Positions 1 through 53,486 are shown, counted from the first letter of the stretch. The stretch: 64,000 nucleotides of DNA from Eledone cirrhosa (GCA_964016885.1 OZ024741.1:27404001-27468000); one strand, 5' to 3'. A program made the numbers and translations. Notes: generated from the sequence alone by a model not told the origin.

Positions 1-3000
1 CTAACTACAGAACACATACTGACTACAGAACACATACTAACTACAGAACACATACTAACTACAGAACACTTACTAACTACAGAACACTTACTAACTACAG
101 AACACTTACTAACTACTGAACACATACTAACTACAGAACACTTACTAACTACAGAACACACACACATACTAACTACCGAATACTTACTAACTACAGAACA
201 CTTACTAACTACTGAACAGATACTAACTACAGAACACTTACTAACTACAGAACACACACACATACTAACTACAGAACACATACTAACTACAGAACACTTA
301 CTAACTACAGAACACATACTAACTACAGAACACTTACTAACTACAGAACACATACTAACTACAGAACACTTACTAACTACAGAACACACACACATACTAA
401 CTACAGAACACATACTAACTACAGATCACTTACTAACTACAGAACACATACTAACTACAGAACACATACTAACTACAGAACACATACTAACTACAGAACA
501 CTTACTAACTACAGAACACACACACATACTAACTACAGAACACATACTAACTACAGAACACATACTAACTACAGAACACATACTAACTACAGAACACACA
601 CACATACTAACTACAGAGCACATACTAACTACAGAAAACTTACTAACTACAGAACACATACTAACTACAGAACACATACTAACTACAGAACACTTACTAA
701 CTACAGAACACTTACTAACTACTGAACACATACTAACTACAGAACACATACTAACTACTGAAAATATACTATCTACTGAACACATACTAACTACAGAACA
801 CATATTAACTACTAACACATACTAACTACAGAACACATACATATACTAACTACTGAACACATACTAACTACAGAACACATACTAACTACTGAACAGATAC
901 TAACTACAGAACACATACATACTAACTACTGAACACATACTAACTACAGAACACATACAAACTACAGAACACTTACTAACTACAGAACACATACTAACTA
1001 CAGAGCACATACTAACTACAGAACACTTACTAACTACTGAACAGATACTAACTACAGAACACTTACTAACTACAGAACAGTTACTAACTACTGAACACAT
1101 ACTAACTACAGAACACTTATTAACTACAGAAGACACACACATACTAACTACAGAACACATACTAACTACAGAACACTTACTAACTACAGAACACTTACTA
1201 ACTACAGAACACATACTAACTACAGAACACATACTAACTACAGAACACATACTAACTACTGAACACATACTAACTACAGAACACATACTAACTACTGAAC
1301 ACATACTAACTACTGAACACATACTAATTACAGAACACATACTAAGTACAGAACACATGCAAACTACTGAACAGATACTAACTACAGAACACATACTGAC
1401 TACTGAACAGATACTAACTACAGAACACATACTAACTACAGAACACATACTAGCTACTGAACACATATTAACTACAGAACACATACTAACTACTGAACAC
1501 ATACTAACTACAGAACACATACATACTAACTACTGAACATATACTAACTACAGAACACATACTAACTACAGAACACATACTAACTGCAGAACACATACTA
1601 ACTACAGAACACACACACATACTAACTACAGAACACTTACTAACTACAGAACACACACACATACTAACTACAGAACACACACACATACTAACTACAGAAC
1701 ACTTACTATCTACAGAACACACACACATACTAACTACAGAACACATACTAACTACTGAACACATACTAACTACTGAACACATACTAACTACTGAACACAT
1801 AGTAACTACAGGACACATACTAACTACTGAACAGATACTAACTACAGAACACATACTAACTACAGAACACATACTAACTACTGAACAGATACTAACTCAG
1901 AACATATACTAACTACAGAACACTTACTACCTACAGAACACACACACATACTAACTACAGAACATATACACATACTAACTACAGAACACTTACTAACTAC
2001 AGAACATACACACATACTAACTACAGAACACATACTAACTACTGAACACAAACTAACTACAGAACACATAGTAACTACAGAACACATGCTAACTACTGAA
2101 CAGATGCTAACTACAGAACACTTACTAACTACAGAACACACACACACATGCTAACTACAGAACACATACATACTAACTACTGAACACATACTAACTACAG
2201 AACACATACTAACTGCAGAACACATACTAACTGCAGAACACATACTAACTACAGAACACATACTAACTACTGAACACAAACTAACTACAGAACACATACT
2301 AACTACAGAACACATGCTAACTACTGAACAGATGCTAACTACAGAACACATACTAACTACAGAACGCTTACTAACTACAGAACACACACACACATGCTAA
2401 CTACAGAATGCTTACTAACTACAGAACACACACACACATGCTAACTACAGAACACATACATACTAACTACTGAACACATACTAACTACAGAACACATACT
2501 AACTGCAGAACACATACTAACTGCAGAATACATACTAACTACAGAACACTTACTAACTACAGAACACACACACATACTAACTACAGAACACATACTAACT
2601 ACTGAACACATACTAACTACAGAACACATACTAACTACAGAACCCATACTAACTACAGAACATATTCTAACTACAGAACCCATACAAACTACAGAACACA
2701 TACTAACTACAGAACACATACTAACTACTGAGCAGATACTAACTACAGAACACATACTAACTACAGAACACGCACACATACTATCTACAGAACACATTCT
2801 AACTACAGAACACATACTAACTACTGAACACATACTAACTACAGAACACATACTACAGAACACATACTAACTACAGAACACATACTAACTACTGAACACA
2901 TACTAACTACAGAACACACACTAACTACAGAACACATACTAACTACTGAACACATACACATACTAACTACAGAACACATATTACAGAAGACATACTAACT

Positions 3001-6000
3001 ACTGAACACATACTACCTACAGAACACTTACTACACAACACACACACATACTAACTACAGAATACTCAATAACTACAGAACACATACTAACTACAGAACA
3101 CACACGCATACAAACTACAGAACACATACTAACTACAGAACACACACACATACTAACTACAGAAAACATACTAACTACTGAACATATACTATCTACTGAA
3201 CACATACTAACTACAGAACTTATATTAACTACTAACACATACTAACTACAGAACACATACACATACTAACTACTGAACACATACTAACTACAGAACACAT
3301 ACTAACTACTGAACAGATACTAACTACAGAACACATACATACTAACTACTGAACACATACTAACTACAGAACACATACAAACTACAGAACACTTACTAAC
3401 TACAGAACACATACTAACTACAGAGCACATACTAACTACAGAACACTTACTAACTATTGAACAGATACTAACTACAGAACACTTACTAACTACAGAACAC
3501 TTACTAACTACTGAACACATACTAACTACAGAACACTTACTAACTACAGAAGACACACACATACTAACTACAGAACACATACTAACTACAGAACACTTAC
3601 TAACTACAGAACACTTACTAACTACAGAACACATACTAACTACAGAACACATACTAACTACAGAACACATACTAACTACAGAACACATACTAACTACAGA
3701 ACACATACTGACTACAGAACACATACTAACTACAGAACACATACTAACTACAGAACACTTACTAACTACAGAACACTTACTAACTACAGAACACTTACTA
3801 ACTACTGAACACATACTAACTACAGAACACTTACTAACTACAGAACACACACACATACTAACTACCGAATACTTACTAACTACAGAACACTTACTAACTA
3901 CTGAACAGATACTAACTACAGAACACTTACTAACTACAGAACACACACACATACTAACTACAGAACACATACTAACTACAGAACACTTACTAACTACAGA
4001 ACACATACTAACTACAGAACACTTACTAACTACAGAACACATACTAACTACAGAACACTTACTAACTACAGAACACACACACATACTAACTACAGAACAC
4101 ATACTAACTACAGATCACTTACTAACTACAGAACACATACTAACTACAGAACACATACTAACTACAGAACACATACTAACTACAGAACACTTACTAACTA
4201 CAGAACACACACACATACTAACTACAGAACACATACTAACTACAGAACACATACTAACTACAGAACACATACTAACTACAGAACACACACACATACTAAC
4301 TACAGAGCACATACTAACTACAGAAAACTTACTAACTACAGAACACATACTAACTACAGAACACATACTAACTACAGAACACTTACTAACTACAGAACAC
4401 TTACTAACTACTGAACACATACTAACTACAGAACACTTACTAACTACAGAAGACACACACATACTAACTACAGAACACATACTAACTACAGAACACTTAC
4501 TAACTACAGAACACTTACTAACTACAGAACACATACTAACTACAGAACACATACTAACTACAGAACACATACTAACTACAGAACACATACTAACTACAGA
4601 ACACATAATAACTACAGAACACTTACTAACTACTGAACACATACTAACTACAGAACACATACTAACTACAGAACACATACTAACTACAGAACACATACTA
4701 ACTACAGAACACTTACTAACTACAGAACACTTACTAACTACAGAACACTTACTAACTACTGAACACATACTAACTACAGAACACTTACTAACTACAGAAC
4801 ACACACACATACTAACTACCGAACACTTACTAACTACAGAACACACACACATTCTAACTACAGAGCACATACTGTCTACAGAACACATACTAACTACAGA
4901 ACACTTACTAACTACTGAACACATACTAACTACAGAACACTTACTAACTACAGAACACACACACACACTAACTACAGAACACTTACTAACTACAGAACAC
5001 TTACTAACTACTGAACAGATACTAACTACAGAACACTTACTAACTACAGAACACACACACATACTAACTACAGAACACATACTAACTACAGAACACTTAC
5101 TAACTACAGAACACATACTAACTACAGAACACTTACTAACTACAGAACACATACTAACTACAGAACACTTACTAACTACAGAACACACACACATACTAAC
5201 TACAGAACACATACTAACTACAGATCACTTACTAACTACAGAACACATACTAACTACAGAACACATACTAACTACAGAACACATACTAACTACAGAACAC
5301 TTACTAACTACAGAACCCACACACATACTAACTACAGAACACATACTAACTACAGAACACACACACATACTAACTACAGAGCACATACTAACTACAGAAA
5401 ACTTACTAACTACAGAACACATACTAACTACAGAACACTTACTAACTACAGAACACATACTAACTACAGAGCACATGCTAACTACAGAACACATACTAAC
5501 TACAGAACACTTACTAACTACAGAACACTTACTAACTACAGAACACTTACTAACTACAGAACACTTACTAACTACAGAACACTTACTAACTACAGAACAC
5601 ATACTAACTACAGAACGCATACTAACTACAGAACGCATACTAAATACAGAACACTTACTAACTACAGAACACATACTAACTACAGAACACTTACTAACTA
5701 CAGAACACATACTAACTACAGAACGCATACTAACTACAGAACACTGACTAACTACAGAACACATACTAACTACAGAACACTTACTAACTACAGAACACAT
5801 ACTAACTACAGAACACTTACTAAATACAGAACACTTACTAACTACAGAACACTTACTAACTACAGAACACTTACTAACTACAGAACACATACTAACTACA
5901 GAACGCATACTAACTACAGAACGCATACTAACTACAGAACACTTACTAACTACAGAACGCATACTAACTACAGAACACTTACTAACTACAGAACACATAC

Positions 6001-9000
6001 TAACTACAGAGCACATACAAACTACAGAACACATACTAACTACAGAACACTTACTAACTACAGAACACATACTAACTACAGAATACTTACTAACTACAGA
6101 ACACATACTAACTACAGGACACATACTAACTACAAAACACACACACATACTAACTACAGAACACATAATAACTGCAGAACACACACACATACTAACTACA
6201 GAACACTTACTAACTACAGAAAACACAGACATACTAACTACAGAACACATTCTAACTACAGAACACATACTAACTACAGAACACATACTAACTACTGAAC
6301 ACATACTAATTACAGAACTCATACTAACTACAGAACACATACTATCTACTGAACACTTACATACTAACTAGAGAACACATACATACTAACTACTGGACAC
6401 ATACCAACTACTGAACACATACTAACTACAAAACACATACACATACTAACTACTGAACACATACTAACTACAGAACACATACTAACTATAGAACACATAC
6501 TAACTACTGAACACATACTAACTACTGAACACATACTAATTACAGAACACATACTAAGTACAGAACACATGCTAACTACTGAACAGATACTAACTACAGA
6601 ACACATACTGACTACTGAACAGATACTAACTACAGAACACATACTAGCTACAGAACACATACTAACTACTGAACACATATTAACTACTGAACACATATTA
6701 ACTACAGAACACATACTAACTACTGAACACATACTAACTACAGAACACATACATACTAACTACTGAACATATACTAACTACAGAACACATACTAACTACA
6801 GAACACATACTAACTGCAGAACACATACTAACTACAGAACACTTACTAACTACAGAACACACACACATACTAACTACCGAACACTTACTAACTACAGAAC
6901 ACACACACATTCTAACTACAGAGCACATACTGACTACAGAACACATACTAACTACAGAACGCTTACTAACTACAGAACACTTACTAACTACTGAACACAT
7001 ACTAACTACAGAACACTTACTAACTACAGAACACACACACATACTAACTACAGAACACTTACTAACTACAGAACACTTACTAACTACTGAACAGATACTA
7101 ACTACAGAACACTTACTAACTACAGAACACACACACATACTAACTACAGAACACATACTAACTACAGAACACTTACTAACTACAGAACACATACTAACTA
7201 CAGAACACTTACTAACTACAGAACACATACTAACTACAGAACACTTACTAACTACAGAACACACACACATACTAACTACAGAAACATACTAACTACAGAT
7301 CACTTACTAACTACAGAACACATACTAACTACAGAACACATACTAACTACAGAACACATACTAACTACAGAACACTTACTAACTACAGAACACACACACA
7401 TACTAACTACAGAACACATACTAACTACAGAACACATACTAACTACAGAACACACACACATACTAACTACAGAGCACATACTAACTACAGAAAACTTACT
7501 AACTACAGAACACATACTAACTACAGAACACTTACTAACTACAGAACACATACTAACTACAGAGCACATGCTAACTACAGAACACATACTAACCACAGAA
7601 CACTTACTAACTACAGAACACTTACTAACTACAGAACACTTACTAACTACAGAACACTTACTTACCTCAGAACACTTACTAACTACAGAACACATACTAA
7701 CTACAGAACGCATACTAACTACAGAACGCATACTAAATACAGAACACTTACTAACTACAGAACACATACTAAATACAGAACACTTACTAACTACAGAACA
7801 CTTACTAACTACAGAACACTTACTAACTACAGAACACATACTAACTACAGAACGCATACTAACTACAGAACGCATACTAACTACAGAACACTTACTAACT
7901 ACAGAACGCATACTAACTACAGAACACTTACTAACTACAGAACACTTACTAACTACAGAACACTTACTAACTACAGAAGACTTACTAACTACAGAACACA
8001 TACTAACTACAGAACACATACTAACTACAGAACACTTACTAACTACAGAACACATACTAACTACAGAGCACATACAAACTACAGAACACATACTAACTAC
8101 AGAACACTTACTAACTACAGAACACATACTAACTACAGAACACATACTAACTACAGAACACATACTAACTACAGAACACATAATAACTACAGAACACTTA
8201 CTAACTACTGAACACATACTAACTACAGAACACATACTAACTACAGAACACATACTAACTACAGAACACATACTAACTACAGAACACTTACTAACTACAG
8301 AACACTTACTAACTACAGAACACTTACTAACTACTGAACACATACTAACTACAGAACACTTACTAACTACAGAACACACACACATACTAACTACCGAACA
8401 CTTACTAACTACAGAACACACACACATTCTAACTACAGAGCACATACTGTCTACAGAACACATACTAACTACAGAACACTTACTAACTACTGAACACATA
8501 CTAACTACAGAACACTTACTAACTACAGAACACACACACACACTAACTACAGAACACTTACTAACTACAGAACACTTACTAACTACTGAACAGATACTAA
8601 CTACAGAACACTTACTAACTACAGAACACACACACATACTAACTACAGAACACATACTAACTACAGAACACTTACTAACTACAGAACACATACTAACTAC
8701 AGAACACTTACTAACTACAGAACACATACTAACTACAGAACACTTACTAACTACAGAACACACACACATACTAACTACAGAACACATACTAACTACAGAT
8801 CACTTACTAACTACAGAACACATACTAACTACAGAACACATACTAACTACAGAACACATACTAACTACAGAACACTTACTAACTACAGAACACACACACA
8901 TACTAACTACAGAACACATACTAACTACAGAACACATACTAACTACAGAACACATACTAACTACAGAACACACACACATACTAACTACAGAGCACATACT

Positions 9001-12000
9001 AACTACAGAAAACTTACTAACTACAGAACACATACTAACTACAGAACACTTACTAACTACAGAACACATACTAACTACAGAGCACATGCTAACTACAGAA
9101 CACATACTAACTACAGAACACTTACTAACTACAGAACACTTACTAACTACAGAACACTTACTAACTACAGAACACTTACTAACTACAGAACACTTACTAA
9201 CTACAGAACACATACTAACTACAGAACGCATACTAACTACAGAACGCATACTAAATACAGAACACTTACTAACTACAGAACACATACTAATTACAGAACA
9301 CTTACTAACTACAGAACACATACTAACTACAGAACGCATACTAACTACAGAACACTGACTAACTACAGAACACATACTAACTACAGAACACTTACTAACT
9401 ACAGAACACATACTAACTACAGAACACTTACTAAATACAGAACACTTACTAACTACAGAACACTTACTAACTACAGAACACTTACTAACTACAGAACACA
9501 TACTAACTACAGAACGCATACTAACTACAGAACGCATACTAACTACAGAACACTTACTAACTACAGAACGCATACTAACTACAGAACACTTACTAACTAC
9601 AGAACACATACTAACTACAGAGCACATACAAACTACAGAACACATACTAACTACAGAACACTTACTAACTACAGAACACATACTAACTACAGAATACTTA
9701 CTAACTACAGAACACATACTAACTACAGGACACATACTAACTACAAAACACACACACATACTAACTACAGAACACATAATAACTGCAGAACACACACACA
9801 TACTAACTACAGAACACTTACTAACTACAGAAAACACAGACATACTAACTACAGAACACATTCTAACTACAGAACACATACTAACTACAGAACACATACT
9901 AACTACTGAACACATACTAATTACAGAACACATACTAACTACAGAACACATACTATCTACTGAACACTTACATACTAACTAGAGAACACATACATACTAA
10001 CTACTGGACACATACCAACTACTGAACACATACTAACTACAAAACACATACACATACTAACTACTGAACACATACTAACTACAGAACACATACTAACTAT
10101 AGAACACATACTAACTACTGAACACATACTAACTACTGAACACATACTAATTACAGAACACATACTAAGTACAGAACACATGCTAACTACTGAACAGATA
10201 CTAACTACAGAACACATACTGACTACTGAACAGATACTAACTACAGAACACATACTAGCTACAGAACACATACTAACTACTGAACACATATTAACTACTG
10301 AACACATATTAACTACAGAACACATACTAACTACTGAACACATACTAACTACAGAACACATACATACTAACTACTGAACATATACTAACTACAGAACACA
10401 TACTAACTACAGAACACATACTAACTGCAGAACACATACTAACTACAGAACACTTACTAACTACAGAACACACACACATACTAACTACCGAACACTTACT
10501 AACTACAGAACACACACACATTCTAACTACAGAGCACATACTGACTACAGAACACATACTAACTACAGAACGCTTACTAACTACAGAACACTTACTAACT
10601 ACTGAACACATACTAACTACAGAACACTTACTAACTACAGAACACACACACATACTAACTACAGAACACTTACTAACTACAGAACACTTACTAACTACTG
10701 AACAGATACTAACTACAGAACACTTACTAACTACAGAACACACACACATACTAACTACAGAACACATACTAACTACAGAACACTTACTAACTACAGAACA
10801 CATACTAACTACAGAACACTTACTAACTACAGAACACACACACATACTAACTACAGAACACATACTAACTACAGAACACTTACTAACTACAGAACACATA
10901 CTAACTACAGAACACATACTAACTACAGAACACATACTAACTACAGAACACTTACTAACTACAGAACACACACACATACTAACTACAGAACACATACTAA
11001 CTACAGAACACATACTAACTACAGAACACATACTAACTACAGAACACATACTAACTACAGAACACACACACATACTAACTACAGAGCACATACTAACTAC
11101 AGAAAACTTACTAACTACAGAACACATACTAACTACAGAACACTTACTAACTACAGAACACATACTAACTACAGAGCACATGCTAACTACAGAACACATA
11201 CTAACTACAGAACACTTACTAACTACAGAACACTTACTAACTACAGAACACTTACTAACTACAGAACACTTACTTACCTCAGAACACTTACTAACTACAG
11301 AACACATACTAACTACAGAACGCATACTAACTACAGAACGCATACTAAATACAGAACACTTACTAACTACAGAACACATACTAAATACAGAACACTTACT
11401 AACTACAGAACACTTACTAACTACAGAACACTTACTAACTACAGAACACATACTAACTACAGAACGCATACTAACTACAGAACGCATACTAACTACAGAA
11501 CACTTACTAACTACAGAACGCATACTAACTACAGAACACTTACTAACTACAGAACACTTACTAACTACAGAAGACTTACTAACTACAGAACACATACTAA
11601 CTACAGAACACATACTAACTACAGAACACTTACTAACTACAGAACACATACTAACTACAGAGCACATACAAACTACAGAACACATACTAACTACAGAACA
11701 CTTACTAACTACAGAACACATACTAACTACAGAATACTTACTAACTACAGAACACATACTAACTACAGGACACATACTAACTACAGAACACACACACATA
11801 CTAACTACAGAACACATAATAACTGCAGAACACACACACATACTAACTACAGAACACTTACTAACTACAGAAAACACAGACATACTAACTACAGAACACA
11901 TTCTAACTACAGAACACATACTAACTACAGAACACATACTAACTACTGAACACATACTAATTACAGAACACATACTAACTACAGAACACATACTACCTAC

Positions 12001-15000
12001 TGAACACTTACATACTAACTAGAGAACACATACATACTAACTACTGGACACATACCAACTACTGAACACATACTAACTACAAAACACATACACATACTAA
12101 CTACTGAACACATACTAACTACAGAACACATACTAACTATAGAACACATACTAACTACTGAACACATACTAACTACTGAACACATACTAATTACAGAACA
12201 CATACTAAGTACAGAACACATGCTAACTACTGAACAGATACTAACTACAGAACACATACTGACTACTGAACAGATACTAACTACAGAACACATACTAGCT
12301 ACAGAACACATACTAACTACTGAACACATATTAACTACTGAACACATATTAACTACAGAACACATACTAACTACTGAACACATACTAACTACAGAACACA
12401 TACATACTAACTACTGAACATATACTAACTACAGAACACATACTAACTACAGAACACATACTAACTGCAGAACACATACTAACTACAGAACACTTACTAA
12501 CTACAGAACACACACACATACTAACTACAGAACACTTACTATCTACAGAACACACACACATACTAACTACAGAACACATACTAACTACTGAACAGATACT
12601 AACTACAGAACACATACTAACTACAGAACACATACTAACTACTGAACAGATACTAACTCAGAACATATACTAACTACAGAACACTTACTACCTACAGAAC
12701 ACACACACATACTAACTACAGAACAAATACTAACTACAGAACATATACACATACTAACTACAGAACACTTACTAACTACAGAACACACACACATACTAAC
12801 TACAGAACACATACTAACTACTGAACACAAACTAACTACAGAACACATACTAACTACAGAACACTTACTAACTACAGAACACACACACACATGCTAACTA
12901 CAGAACAGATGCTAACTACAGAACACATACTAACTACTGAACAGATACTAACTACAGAACACATACTAACTACAGAACACTTACTAACTACAGAACACAC
13001 ACACACATGCTAACTACAGAACACATACATACTAACTACTGAACACATACTAACTACAGAACACATACTAACTGCAGAACACATACTAACTACAGAACAC
13101 TTACTAACTACAGAACACACACACATACTAACTACAGAACACATACTAACTACTGAACACATACTAACTACAGAACACATACTAACTACAGAACGCATAC
13201 TAACTACAGAACATATTCTAACTACAGAACCCATACAAACTACAGAACACATACTAACTACTGAACACATACTAACTACAGAACACATACTAACTACTGA
13301 ACAGATACTAACTACAGAACACATACTAACTACAGAACAGATACTAACTACAGAACACATACTAACTACAGAACACATACTAACTACAGAACACATACTA
13401 ACTACAGAATACTCAATAACTACAGAACACATACTAACTACAGAACACACACGCATACTAACTACAGAACACATACTAACTACAGAACACATACTAACTA
13501 CAGAACACATACTAACTACAGAACACATACTAACTACAGAACACATACTAACTACAGAACACACACACATACTAACTACAGAACACATACAAACTACAGA
13601 ACATTTACTAACTACTGAACACATACTAACTAGAGAACACTCACACATACTAACTACAGAGCACATACTAACTACAGAACACTTACTAACTACAGAAGAC
13701 ACACACATACTAACTACAGAACACATACTAACTACAGAACACATACTAACTACAGAACACTTACTAACTACAGAACACATACTAACTACAGAACACATAC
13801 TAACTACAGAATACATACTAACTACAGAACACATACTAACTACAGAACACTTACTAACTACGGAACACATACTAACTACAGAACACATACTAACTACAGA
13901 ACACATACTAACTACAGAACACATACTATCTACAGAACACTTACTAACTACAGAACACATACTAACTACAGAACACATACTAACTACAGAACACATACTA
14001 ACTACAGAACACTTACTAACTACAGAACACTTACTAACTACAGAACACTTACTAACTACTGAACACATACTAACTACAGAACACTTACTAACTACAGAAC
14101 ACACACACATACTAACTACAGAACACTTACTAACTACAGAACACTTACTAACTACTGAACACATACTAACTACAGAACACTTACTAACTACAGAACACAC
14201 ACACATACTAACTACAGAACACATACTAACTACAGAACACTTACTAACTACAGAACACTTACTAACTACAGAACACTTACTAACTACTGAACACATACTA
14301 ACTACAGAACACTTACTAACTACAGAACACACACACATACTAACTACAGAACACTTACTAACTACAGAACACTTACTAACTACAGAACACACACACATAC
14401 TATCTACAGAACACATACTAACTACAGAACACTTACTAACTACAGAACACATACTAACTACAGAACACTTACTAACTACAGAACATACACACATACTAAC
14501 TACAGAACACATACTAACTACAGAACACATACTAACTACATAACACACACACATACTATCTACAGAACGCATACTAGCTACATAACACTTACTAACTACA
14601 GAACACTTACTAACTACAGAACACTTACTAACTACAGAACACATACTAACTACAGAACGCATACTAACTACAGAACGCATACTAACTACAGAACACTTAC
14701 TAACTACAGAACACATACTAACTACAGAACACTTACTAACTACAGAACACATACTAACTACAGAACACTTACTAACTACAGAACACTTACTAACTACAGA
14801 ACACTTACTAACTACAGAACACATACTAACTACAGAACGCATACTAACTACAGAATGCATACTAACTACAGAACACTTACTAACTACAGAACACATACTA
14901 ACTACAGAACACTTACTAACTACAGAACACTTACTAACTACAGAACACATACTAACTACAGAACACTTACTAACTACAGAACACTTACTAACTACAGAAC

Positions 15001-15260
15001 ACTTACTAACTACAGAACACTTACTAACTCCAGAACACTTACTAACTACAGAACACTTACTAACTACAGAACACATACTAACTACAGAACACATACTAAC
15101 TACAGAATACTTACTAACTACAGAACACATACTAACTACAGAACACATACTAACTACAGAACACATACTAACTACAGAATACTTACTAACTACAGAACAC
15201 ATACTAACTACAGGACACATACTAACTACAGAACACACGCACATACTAACTACAGCACAC
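1..15260 (+). repeat. 18-bp minisatellite array, consensus CTAACTACAGAACACATA (common variant ...CACTTA; 24-bp units with extra CACACA), with kb-scale higher-order duplications; runs off the left edge
   Basis: Continuous tandem units from base 1 to ~15260. Roughly 800 units estimated from length. Diagnostic variant blocks recur, e.g. identical 128-aa minus-strand ORFs at 6364, 9975 and 12015. Confidence 0.98.
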
Positions 15261-15355
15261 ATACACACTCATACACACTCTCACTCACTCCCTCTCTCTC
15301 TCACACACACACATGTACACACACATACATACACGCACATACTCACATACTCATA

Positions 15356-15407
<52 letters not shown>

Positions 15408-15440
15408 CACACACACACCCATCGACACACATGTATATAC
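15261..15440. repeat. (CA)n/(CT)n compound microsatellite bordering the minisatellite
   Basis: Directly visible dinucleotide tracts. Confidence 0.9.
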
Positions 15441-15697
15441 ACAAGAATGGTGAAGGAACTTAAGACATTTTTATTAGTCTTACAATGAAACTAGAAATAT
15501 GGTAACTGGAAGAATTTTGTTTAAGCAACATTATAGTATATACTAATATATGAGCATAAAATTGGTTAATCTACCTTAACACATAGTTTCACATCACTCT
15601 TGTAGAGAAACTCTCAGGAGAGCTGGACAACAGGTCTTCTGAGAAGAACACCCACCCCTCTCAAGCTAGTTTTACAGCCCTTAACTGCTGAGAGACA

Positions 15698-15926
15698 TTA
15701 ACCCTTTAATATTTAAACTGGCCATATCTAGTCGGAATTCTCTCACCTCTTTCTTTTCCAGTCAGTCATAACTGGCTACGTATACTTTTGTTAAGGTATT
15801 GTTCTCAAAATAAATAATATCAAAATCTTGTAGATTCAATGTTATGTGAGATAATTATGTGAGAAAAAGTGTTTACCGTGAAAATACAATAGTATATATA
15901 GAGAAATGTAAATGCTCAAGGGTTAA
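15698..15926. mobile_element. piggyBac-like MITE (TTAA-CCC...GGG-TTAA)
   Basis: TTAA at 15698 and 15923 flank CCCTTT...AAGGG termini. A diverged second copy lies at 46845-47066. Confidence 0.7.
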
Positions 15927-16119
15927 AAAGTACATAATAAGTATCATATTAGTCTTGTGATTCTTGGATGTTTTTCTCAAGGAGATTTCCTACAATTTAT
16001 GTACTTTTTAATGTCTCTGAAAATAGGTGAGTGATGTGGAATTATGTGTTAAGGTAAATTAATTGATTTTATGCTTAGATTTTTGTATATGGATTTATAC
16101 CTATATAGTCTAAAGTCTG

Positions 16120-16385
16120 TCTCAAGCCAGGAGCCTCATCAAGCTGGTGCTTATCCAGTTTTGTGACATGAAATGACTGAGAGTACAAGACTCCCCTCTG
16201 GACAGGACACCAGTCCATTGCAGGGTTAAACCCCCAGCTATTACTGGTACTCATTTTCAGCTGAGTATACTGGAGCCATGTGAAATGAAGTGTTTTGCTC
16301 AAGAACACAGCACACAACCCAGCCCAGTAATCAAACCCACCACATTATGACCGTACGTCCAACACCCTTACCATTAGGCCATTGT
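16120..16385 (-). mobile_element. SINE copy (tRNA-like head plus CORE-like TTGAGCAAAACACTT domain)
   Basis: Reverse complement shares head and core with the copies at 18708, 32927, 38050 and 52320. Confidence 0.65.
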
Positions 16386-17180
16386 AATGCTACTTAAATG
16401 AAATTCTTTCTTCTATCATAGACTAATACGTAAGACTAATAAAAATGTCTTAAATTTTTTCATCATTGTTGTAAATTTATTATTTAAATATTCTGTATAT
16501 TTTCACTCATACAACACACTAGATTTGTTCAGCCAAAATTATAATTCCTGATTCCATACAGAATCATATGGATGAATAAATTCCTTCTATTAACTGATTG
16601 TTGAACCATATTGAGATTGAAACTTGCTTGGAATAACTTACACCAACTTGATTTTTCAACAATTTACACTTGTTTTATATATATATATATATTAAAATAA
16701 CAGATTAAAGTTTAAACAAAGAATCACTGCTTTCAACCTTAACAGGATCTTCTGAAACTAAAAAGATCAATCTGTGAACGCAGAAGTAAATATTTCAAAA
16801 AATGTCCCTTTGGATTTTAGTCTTCACATTTATTATTATTACTGGTGATATTCCTTTAAAGTTTTATTGTTGCAAAATCCTATATATATTTCAATGGCCT
16901 GCTTACGTAAGATCCTGGCCACATCATCAGGTTCAGATTGCATAATTAATTACTCAATAAAGGAGTTACAGCATACACAAACAGAGAAAGTATAGAAAAA
17001 ATATTTGATTTGGTGATGGCCTGTGACCTATGTATTATTGTTGTTGTAGACCATCTCCGAATATATATATATATAGCTTTGGAGATAGTACCCCCAGCAT
17101 GGCTACAGTTCAATGACCGAAACCTGTAAAATAAAATAACAGGACTTATGTTTTTGTTTTGCCTCTCTTATATTTCACAG

Positions 17181-17305
17181 GTGCTGAGATGACAGAGCTT
17201 TCCGAAAATTTGCATTATGATCGCGAGGTAATTCGCGTGTGGTTCTGCAACAAGAGACAAGCACTGAAGAATACCATAAAAAAACTGAAACAAGAAAATG
17301 CTTGA
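17181..17305 (+). CDS. POU6: Terminal coding exon of a class VI POU homeodomain transcription factor (POU6F2/pdm3-like): (G)AEMTELSENLHYDREVIRVWFCNKRQALKNTIKKLKQENA*
   Basis: Pyrimidine-rich acceptor ...ctctcttatatttcacAG ends at 17180 (phase 1). The translation has the POU homeodomain helix 3 RVWFCN and the class VI signature YDREV-RVWFCNKRQALKNT. Stop TGA at 17303-17305 is followed by TAG. No intact upstream exon was seen in the window. Confidence 0.95.
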
Positions 17306-40502: not shown

Positions 40503-40684
40503 GCTACCGCTACTGCTGCTGTTGTAAAGGCTTATATTAATTTCAAATAACAACACTACAGATATTTTAAAAACAGAAAGTGAAGGGAAGGGCAGGGACT
40601 CTTGGGTCAGTGAAGAATGGGGTATAGGGGAGGGGGATTATTGATATTTATTTATGATGTAGTGGTGGGTTTCTTGATCATTCT

Positions 40685-42515
40685 TACCACCACCACCACC
40701 AACATCATCATCACTATTATTACCACCCCTACCATTACCACCACCATCACTACCACCACCACCACCACCACCATCACTACCACCACCACCATCACTACCA
40801 TTACCACCACCACCACCACCATCACTACCATTACCACTACCATCACTACCATTACCACCACCATCATCACTATTATTACCTCCACTACCATTACCACCAC
40901 CACCACCACCATCACTACCATTACCACTACCACTACTACCACCATCACTACCATTACCACCATCATCACTATTATTACCACTACTACCATTACCACCACC
41001 ACTACCACCACCACCACCAACACCACCACCATCACTATCACCACCATTACCACCATCACTACTATTACCACCACCATCACTACTATAACCACCACCATTA
41101 CCACTACCACCACCACCATTACAACTACCACCACCACTACTACCACCACCATTACCACCAACACCACTACCATACCTACCATTATCATCACTACTACCAC
41201 CATCACTATTGTCATTATACACACACACACACTCACTGACACACACTCACAGGCACATACTCACAAGCACACACTTTCACAAACACACACACACACTCAC
41301 AGACACACTCACAGACTCATACGCTGACAGACACACACACTCACTAACACACACACTCACTGACACACACTCACTGACACACACACTCACTCACACACAC
41401 ACTCTCACAGACACACTCTCTAACATACACTCTCACAGATACACACTCACAGGCACACACACTCACTGACACACACACACTCACTGACACACACACTCAC
41501 TGACACACACACTCACTGACACACACACACTCACTGACACACACACTCTCACAGACACACACACTCACTGACACACACACACACACACTCACTGACACAC
41601 ACTCTCACACACACACACTCACTGACACTCTCACAGACACACACTCACTGACACACACACTCACTAACACACACACTCACTGACACACACACACTCACTG
41701 ACACACACACTCACTGAGACACACACACACACACACACACTGACACACACACTCACTGACATACACACTCACTGACACACACACACACACACACTGACAC
41801 ACACACACTCACTGACATACACACTCACTGACACACACACACTCACTGACACACACACACACACTGACACACACACACACACCGACACACACACACTCAC
41901 CGACACACACACACTCACTGACACACACACACTCACTGACACACACACACACTGACACACACACACACACTGACAGACACACACTCACTGACACACACAC
42001 ACACACACACTGACACACACACACACACACACACTGACACACACACACACTGACACACACACACACACACACACTCACTGACACACACACACTCACTGAC
42101 ACACACACACACACACACACTGACACACACACACACTGACACACACACACACTGACACACACTCACTGACACACACACACACACTGACACACACACACAC
42201 ACAGACAGACAAAATGTTAAGAGAGATTACTTTATAGACCAAACTATAAACTTCTTGGTTCTCCTCTTGTGTGGTGTTGTCATCATCATCATTGTCATCA
42301 TCATCATCGTCATCATTGTCATCACCATCATCACCATCATCATCATCATCACCATCATCACCATCATCATCATCATCATCATCATCATTGTCATCATCAT
42401 CATTGTCATCATCATCATCATCATCATCATCACCATTGTCACCATCATTGTCATCACCATCATTGTCATCATCATCATCACCATCATTGTCATCAACCAT
42501 CATCATCATCACCAT
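40685..42515. repeat. Compound low-complexity block: (ACC/ATC)n, then CACACACTCACTGA-type repeat, then (CAT)n
   Basis: Directly visible. Accounts for the poly-T/V/G/H/D ORFs in the track. Confidence 0.92.
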
Positions 42516-42519
42516 TATC

Positions 42520-42830
42520 ATAGGGGTCGATAAAATAAAGTACCAGTAATACACTGGAGTCGATTTAATCGACTTTCCCCTTCCCCAAAAATTGCTGGCC
42601 TTGTGCCTATAGTAGAAACCATTATTATTATTATTAACAGTGGATTGGCAGTATCAGTAGAGTGTCGGACACCATGCTTTGCAGCATACAGTTACGTCCC
42701 TTTATGTTCTGAGTTCAAATCCCGCCGAGATTAGCTTTGCCTTTTATCTTTACAGGGTCGATAAAGTACCAGTAATGCAATCTGGTCGATTTAATCAACT
42801 TTCTCCTTCCCTTCAAATTTCTGGCCTTGT
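42520..42830 (+). mobile_element. Tandem SINE group B copies (5'-truncated plus near-complete)
   Basis: GGGGTCGATAAAATAAAGTACCAG body and TTATTA tail. Confidence 0.8.
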
Positions 42831-52943: not shown

Positions 52944-53358
52944 GTCTGGCGGGTTTTCTACGGCTGGATGCTCTTCCTAACACCAACCACGTTTACAGTG
53001 TGGACTGGGAGGTTTTTACTGTGTTACTTACACGGCCACATTACAGCGTGGACTGTGTGTTTTTTGTCGTGACACCTACACGTCTGGCAGGTTTTCTACG
53101 GCTGGGTGCCCTTCCCAGCACCAACCGCGTTTACAGTGTGGACTGGGAGGTTTTTACGGTGTTACCTACACGGCAACATTACAGCGTGGACTGTGTGTTT
53201 TTTGTCGTGACACCTACACGTCTGGCGGGTTTTCTACGGCTGGGTGCCCTTCCCAACACCAACCACGTTTACAGTGTGGACTGGAAGGTTTTTACCGTGT
53301 TACCTACACGGCCACATTACAGCGTGGACTGTGTGTTTTTTTGTCGTGACACCTACAC
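52944..53358 (-). repeat. Three tandem 138-bp units in the RTE 3' UTR
   Basis: GTCTGGCRGGTTTTCTACGGCTGG starts at 52944, 53082 and 53220. Confidence 0.9.
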
Positions 53359-53486
53359 GACATCATTTGTTTCGGACTGGATGTTGTGGTACCAACATAA
53401 CTTCACATTTAAGGGTGTGGTGGGGGTAGTGGGACGGGGCTGTATTTTGTTAGAGGTGCCTACTGACTGTAGGTTTCGCTTTGTAC

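Follow-up and report, generated by a model that had tools for sequence, protein, structure and literature searches.

A 59-kb TACTAAC-bearing minisatellite in the last POU6 intron of an octopus, probably grown by neutral tandem duplication

Introduction

Tandem copies of UACUAAC are known from Gomafu (also MIAT or RNCR2), a neural transcript in which they bind SF1 better than mammalian branch points do and delay splicing in vitro (PMC3116199), and for which competition for SF1, and also for QKI, has been proposed (PMC3116199, PMC4255692). Gomafu is described as a stable nuclear non-coding exonic RNA whose few motifs (6–7 in mouse and 3 in chicken; PMC3116199) are conserved from chicken to human. 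It engages a small part of SF1, tandem UACUAAC is insufficient for nuclear retention (PMC3116199, PMC4255692), and the knockout is mild (PMC4890022). Other transcribed repeats offer precedents. DM2 involves a very long sense-strand intronic repeat, the CCUG repeats of CNBP intron 1, whose unit is bound by MBNL1, binding being a by-product of expansion. The Drosophila Y-loop genes kl-3 and kl-5 consist mostly of simple repeats, which fill giant introns and are transcribed with them (PMC6508621), and nascent RNA of the chicken repeat LL2R, rich in a single type of splice signal, could concentrate splicing factors at its locus (bioRxiv 10.64898/2026.03.19.712899).

The locus described here shares with Gomafu multiple UACUAAC on the transcribed strand, but these lie in an intron of the coding gene POU6 rather than in a non-coding exonic RNA, number about 2,600 and form a true minisatellite; conservation of the motif above its surroundings is not seen within the array, and across species a weak hint speaks against it. 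Being intronic and lacking such conservation, the array falls outside the Gomafu class. A preliminary description of this DNA proposed a sponge for RNA-binding proteins, a mechanism already described for Gomafu/MIAT. Compared with DM2, the unit is an unstructured 18-bp STAR-type site and the expansion is apparently tolerated in the reference assembly; compared with kl-3 and kl-5, the array measures tens of kilobases instead of megabases and belongs to a neural transcription factor gene. LL2R, as described, is non-coding, donor-site-rich and found in oocytes, whereas the POU6 array is intronic and branch-point-rich. The array also resembles single-locus VNTRs with higher-order repeats, having a unit of 10–60 bp, interspersed variants and block duplications. 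Its length of 59 kb is unusual by vertebrate minisatellite standards and within the range of other arrays in its own genome. No report of it was found in a search of mostly open-access papers, and the passages of PMC13282606 consulted hold nothing on minisatellites.

Results

The window analyzed, 64,000 nt at G000:C2:27404001-27468000, contains only the 3′ part of the repeat (Table 1). With neighboring stretches joined to it, the 18-bp minisatellite extends over 59,143 bp (G000:C2:27360115-27419257), starting 43.9 kb upstream of the window. The array of more than 15 kb and roughly 800 units announced in the preliminary description is therefore real and, at 59.1 kb, larger than claimed. Within the window TRF reported a single array at 1–15237 (period 18, 820 copies) and alignment gave 814 units, against about 3,120 in the whole array (3,121 in the alignment, not counting end tokens). 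The units run head to tail at a length within the 10–60 bp of a minisatellite and include variant units. Nested duplications with periods of 2.0–4.7 kb are superimposed on them, the longest exact repeat being 2,489 bp; repeated 150-mers cover 77% of the array, least toward both ends, and variant frequencies shift along it, T at column 6 rising from 3% to about 30%. At its 3′ end the array runs into a CA/CATA microsatellite.

Table 1. Features at the 3′ end of the last POU6 intron, in window coordinates
Feature	Position	Strand	Basis
18-bp minisatellite, 3′ quarter; 814 units, one TACTAAC per unit, higher-order duplications of 2–4.7 kb	1..15257	+	TRF, alignment
(CA)n / CATA / CT microsatellite adjoining the array; candidate seed of the unit	15256..15431	+	
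Last POU6 intron, non-array 3′ portion, with dispersed repeats	15432..17140	+	
Native acceptor: CAG preceded by a U-rich pyrimidine tract, with GACTTAT (about -34) as a weak yTnAy branch candidate	17141..17180	+	
POU6 terminal exon, coding part: homeodomain helices 2–3, ending ...KQENA stop	17181..17305	+	

TACTAAC occurs 2,591 times in the whole array, always on the sense strand and never on the other, and bipartite QKI-type sites (core plus half-site) number 2,479, again all sense. In the window, 694 copies fall within 1–15260 and 3 in the remaining 48.7 kb, while the reverse complement is absent from 1–15260, which bears out the claimed location on the POU6 sense strand. Inspection of the unit likewise upheld the geometry given earlier: ACTAAC is followed by the next TAAC half-site at 14 nt, the branch A is separated by 6 nt from the CAG of the same unit and by 24 nt from that of the following one, and no pyrimidine run of 8 or more was found on the array's sense strand. 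Both the motif and its spacing agree with published SF1 and QKI sites (PMC3116199, PMC11483029). By exact matching, which diverged copies would escape, the unit is confined to the POU6 locus, with 1,934/1,934 genome matches of a 17-mer and 236/236 matches of a two-unit pattern being local. A dispersed satellite family with strand bias was accordingly ruled out.

The host gene is POU6. The exon downstream of the array matches POU6F1 3d1n (E 3.8e-09) and residues 671–714 of O. vulgaris POU6, as expected of the terminal exon named in the preliminary description, and the two exons that a POU profile matched just upstream of the array are both POU6. Class 6 is favored by an E value of 5.9e-31 for 3d1n versus 1.9e-06 for the next class; a POU-specific domain and a POU homeodomain nearest to POU6 are both present, and identity to O. 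vulgaris POU6 is 100% over 73 aa. Mapping by tblastn with O. vulgaris POU6 and one relative placed nine exons, all on the + strand, over about 143 kb; the first 33 residues were not found by this mapping. The last intron (C2:27357999-27421180; 63,182 bp, GT..AG, phase 1) splits the homeodomain. It wholly encloses the array, which begins about 2.1 kb past the donor and ends 1.9 kb before the acceptor, so both the intronic position and the distance of about 1.9 kb to the terminal exon stand. The native acceptor, whose AG ends at window position 17180, combines a normal pyrimidine tract with a weak branch candidate.

Sequencing runs offered a view of splicing and of relatives. Four of the eight runs (X1, X3, X4 and X5) were compared; X2 and three RAD-seq runs were left out. 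In X4, taken as RNA from an exon-only contig, a 921-nt contig covers the upstream exon together with three letters ahead of it and two behind it. These flanking letters are those common to the neighboring exons, and 271 further letters, not displayed, mismatch the intron. Two shared letters are what splicing to the terminal exon predicts, whereas they would be lacking after a splice into the array; this one contig thus fits correct joining of the upstream and terminal exons across the array. X4 also contains array-like contigs at low depth, contigs giving neither strand nor level. Summed depth at the array start was 7,204 and 6,833 in the organism A runs versus 23.5 in the related organism B, although depth is not copy number and an array diverged to under 85% would be missed in organism B. 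Exon depth in organism B was 18.4, and its dispersed-repeat bins match organism A; parts of the unique 5′ intron had no cover in organism B or in X4. The low array-start depth in organism B gives a weak hint that the expansion is young.

We then asked whether TACTAAC is preserved within the array, using the 2,302 clean units that remained of 3,503 alignment tokens once units carrying indels or adjoining partial tokens had been removed. Raw deletion counts, an alignment artefact of 6-nt duplications, were kept out. Mean variation was 2.84% in motif columns and 6.22% in the others, or 2.92% once the two common variants were removed (Mann–Whitney U test, p=0.36 for all columns and p=0.62 without those variants), and the TAC.G tail columns next to the motif varied less (1.65%). 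With columns 1, 6 and 17 left out, mean copies per variant event were alike for variants hitting the motif and for others (2.72 vs 2.84, 1.94 vs 1.95 and 1.67 vs 1.58), as were singleton variants (Fisher p 0.21–0.50): variants that hit the motif are amplified as often as others. Among single variants, branch-breaking ones account for 189 copies and tolerated ones for 232, with 10 types each. Some observations lean the other way. Spacer columns 3–6 vary more than the motif, the two dominant substitutions and the common 4–6 nt insertions all lie outside it, and de-duplicated counts including columns 6 and 17 tend toward motif conservation (p=0.09). The earlier statement that the commonest variants spare TACTAAC is true, but the chance of this is 0.36 (11/18 x 10/17, for two dominant substitutions with 11 of 18 positions outside the motif). 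Variation among units tests this poorly, because selection on the total number of sites would hardly act on single units. Selection for the motif is not supported: its positions are no more conserved than the others, an outcome the preliminary description had itself named as counting against its proposal, and the idea that the array exists to serve as a sponge for RNA-binding proteins or a splicing timer finds no support here. Taken as a whole, that interpretation is partly supported, by the intronic sense-strand position, the fit of motif and spacing, the presence of a STAR-dimer gene and the Gomafu precedent.

The genomic context makes the word itself less striking. A shuffled unit carries TACTAAC on a given strand in 0.6% of cases and ACTAAY in 5.9%. 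Genome-wide, triple TACTAAC has 45,281 matches (2,225 of them in the POU6 array), about tenfold more than the triple reversed word (4,442), and triple TACCAAC, a sibling that is not a branch-point word, has 134,241. The reversed word makes a poor control, since (TAC/TAA/CAC)n repeats share the register of TACTAAC but not that of its reverse; against the better control, which is the single sibling word TACCAAC, TACTAAC arrays are not over-represented. TACTAAC is surprising per unit and unsurprising per genome. At least nine unrelated TACTAAC arrays, on both assembly strands, were seen among the matches listed for the first 52 Mb of C1, one of them 29 kb long with 641 motifs, and rough extrapolation from C1 suggests some hundreds across the genome. 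POU6 itself holds further arrays: unrelated ones of 15.3, 7.2, 10.8 and 4.5 kb in two other introns, with 0–2 ACTAAY each, and in another intron a second array of 1.4 kb with 65 sense ACTAAY. Tandem repeats occupy 47% of the 205 kb surrounding the array and on average 38% of ten arbitrary 10-kb stretches at round coordinates, three of which contain arrays of 5.7 kb or more. Giant arrays are genomic background in this genome.

Discussion

We favor, with a probability of roughly three in four, a single-locus 59-kb minisatellite that likely grew by neutral tandem duplication and in which TACTAAC is likely a chance word of an A/C/T-rich unit; a young expansion is the best reading. The 18-bp unit would have been born from CA/CATA/TAC microsatellite sequence and amplified by slippage and unequal exchange, after which bigger blocks would have duplicated, the native acceptor 1.9 kb downstream presumably still winning over the array. 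Folding of the sense RNA is weak, one 300-nt piece reaching -3.9 kcal/mol, and the genome has one STAR-dimer match, which we take to be a QKI/How-like gene. Together with the biochemistry of Gomafu and the reported expression of POU6 in the developing squid CNS (PMC4407788), these features make local binding likely: by analogy with Gomafu, and with the binding of CCUG by MBNL1 in DM2, nascent intron RNA would probably be bound by SF1 and Quaking/How where it is transcribed, as a by-product. The unstructured intron would also add transcription time, and neither binding nor delay would maintain the array. If the array is neutral, the spliceosome passes about 2,600 perfect branch points, most with a CAG at usable distance, and joins the right exons; the locus is then a natural test of branch-point power without a pyrimidine tract, and of the STAR-protein decoy load that a cell tolerates. 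The array is ordinary in kind for this genome, yet a usable natural test of branch-point decoys.

Two alternatives would give the array a use. It could be a sponge or condensate seed maintained or lengthened by selection, nascent or excised intron RNA gathering SF1 and Quaking/How in POU6-expressing neurons and altering the splicing of other genes. Every transcript would offer the full set of TACTAAC and bipartite sites, all sense and in nearly unstructured RNA, the UACUAAC sites being several hundred times Gomafu's number; a STAR-dimer gene exists in the genome, POU6 is expressed in the squid nervous system during development (PMC4407788), and the few motifs of Gomafu are reported to bind SF1 and delay splicing in vitro (PMC3116199). 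However, motif-specific conservation was not found, there is a weak hint that organism B lacks a high-copy array, and about 43,000 further triple matches could compete if transcribed. Excised introns, moreover, are usually degraded fast. Gomafu, in contrast, is a stable nuclear exonic RNA, and even so engages a small SF1 fraction (PMC3116199). We consider such a function unlikely, and equally so its boldest form, in which POU6 transcription in octopus neurons would lead to a Quaking/SF1 condensate at the locus and a cell-wide shift of ACUAA-dependent exons, making the array a recent minisatellite-born regulatory RNA with hundreds of smaller TACTAAC arrays in the genome as a possible dispersed layer. 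A functional array would amount to an intron-borne counterpart of Gomafu in an invertebrate, born of a repeat expansion. Sequence would be irrelevant if length alone were used developmentally, with arrays totalling about 100 kb of the roughly 143-kb gene delaying completion of the homeodomain-coding mRNA. The arrays are about 70% of the mapped POU6 span, and the largest occupies the intron that splits the homeodomain; at transcription rates of 1–4 kb/min its 59 kb would add roughly 15–60 min, and kl-3 and kl-5 of Drosophila provide a precedent (PMC6508621). Such arrays are nevertheless genomic background, and no sign of intron-length conservation was seen in relatives, which leaves a developmental delay quite improbable.

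The remaining alternatives concern the gene product and the assembly. Some transcripts might splice to an array CAG and encode POU6 without its recognition helix but with an (EHILTT)n tail. Most of the array's 2,328 CAGs follow a perfect branch point at a distance of 24 nt, the phase of the intron leads into an open frame at these CAGs (median 98 codons), and a stop-free stretch of 1,567 codons beats 100/100 shuffles at each of three block sizes. Two of the three unit frames are, however, open by chance, the block that contains the long frame has recently duplicated itself (1,685/4,642 60-mers distinct), 179 units shift the frame, and synonymous bias is absent (p=0.57). With no pyrimidine tract, no donor consensus, a lone AATAAA and the single contig seen fitting the normal junction, we regard use of these acceptors as highly improbable. 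A repetitive coding exon was also considered and rejected on frame, synonymous bias and splice-site sequence. That the array exists but was inflated or collapsed in length during assembly is very unlikely. Its exact inner repeats of up to 2,489 bp and the 77% lying in repeated 150-mers would invite such an error, and no array-spanning piece occurs among the contigs of the runs compared; against this, the array has no N gap, comprises 10,474 distinct 31-mers with smooth variant gradients, and consists of words whose depth exceeds that of the flank by factors ranging from several hundred to more than a thousand. A 723-nt contig present in both X1 and X3, which represent one sample, possibly that used for the assembly, also extends out of the flank over 30 letters of the array, one letter below the bridging threshold.

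Under the preferred neutral growth, the orientation of the array may have an explanation apart from its motif. On the sense strand GT occurs 73 times in 59 kb, AATAAA once and GTRAG not at all, and the array may be tolerated because this strand lacks both a donor consensus and a pyrimidine tract. The antisense strand, in contrast, carries 2,345 GTATGT and 513 GTAAGT; since inversion would expose thousands of donor-like sites, avoidance of harm, and not selection for a branch motif, may account for the sense orientation.

The long stop-free frame in the main array, the 18-bp TACTAAC minisatellite on the sense strand of the last POU6 intron, exceeds every shuffle in length, but the block that holds it is recently self-duplicated. 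Were an array CAG used as acceptor, the POU6 donor and this EHILTT frame would be in the same frame. At the array start (L009:6114-6190, in a stretch outside the window), sequencing depth in the related organism B (run X5) is approximately single-copy, a depth that is not itself a copy number, and the common variant at L009:6150 is absent from this run. The organism B array start is possibly an unexpanded ancestral unit.

Most units carry a donor-like hexamer on the minus strand of the main array (window 1-15257; whole array C2:27360115-27419257). Across the whole array, the antisense strand contains 2,345 GTATGT and 513 GTAAGT, the former being converted to the latter by the common variant at column 6 of the aligned unit.

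Beyond the main array, the triple TACTAAC pattern, with a spacer >18 nt required, returned 21,332 forward and 8,785 reverse matches in the genome, which suggests one or more far larger TACTAAC arrays at other places. A single STAR_dimer (QUA1) exon was found genome-wide, a candidate Quaking/How orthologue.

Arrays make up ~70% of the mapped POU6 gene, and the 1.4-kb intronic array bears 65 ACTAAY on the sense strand. The array of 55-bp units may be located in intron 1 of POU6 or upstream of the gene.

Features mapped in the genome (C, sequences of genome G000; L, stretches outside the window)
Feature	Location	Strand or context
Stop-free frame, 1,567 codons, EHILTT repeat	L008:2159-6859 (C2:27366159-27370859)	within main array
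STAR_dimer (QUA1) exon	L060:1501-1611 (C9:33.30 Mb)	minus strand
Unrelated arrays, 7.2 + 15.3 kb	C2:27282793-27305213 (among L013-L017, L010-L011)	POU6 introns
Unrelated array, 1.4 kb	C2:27310694-27312113 (among L013-L017, L010-L011)	POU6 intron
Unrelated array, 10.8 kb	C2:27317685-27328520 (among L013-L017, L010-L011)	POU6 intron
Unrelated array, 4.5 kb	C2:27341312-27345771 (among L013-L017, L010-L011)	POU6 intron
Array, 55-bp unit, 26.7 kb, contains 200-N gap	C2:27230019-27256712 (L019-L022)	upstream of first mapped POU6 exon
29-kb array, 641 TACTAAC	L061-L064 (C1:1.52-1.56 Mb)	motif on minus strand
Tandem array, 50-bp spacing	G000:C28:92330401-92341791	match to window 17092-17135
Compound low-complexity block	window 40684-42521	
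138-bp GC-richer unit, 3 tandem copies, 94% alike	window 52944-53359	

Within the window, the piece matching the C28 tandem array is 43 bp of intron near the POU6 acceptor. The compound block runs from an ACC/ACT repeat (~500 bp) through a ACACACAC-TCACTG repeat (~1 kb) to (TCA)n, and the 138-bp unit copies open a GC-richer stretch at 53-58 kb.
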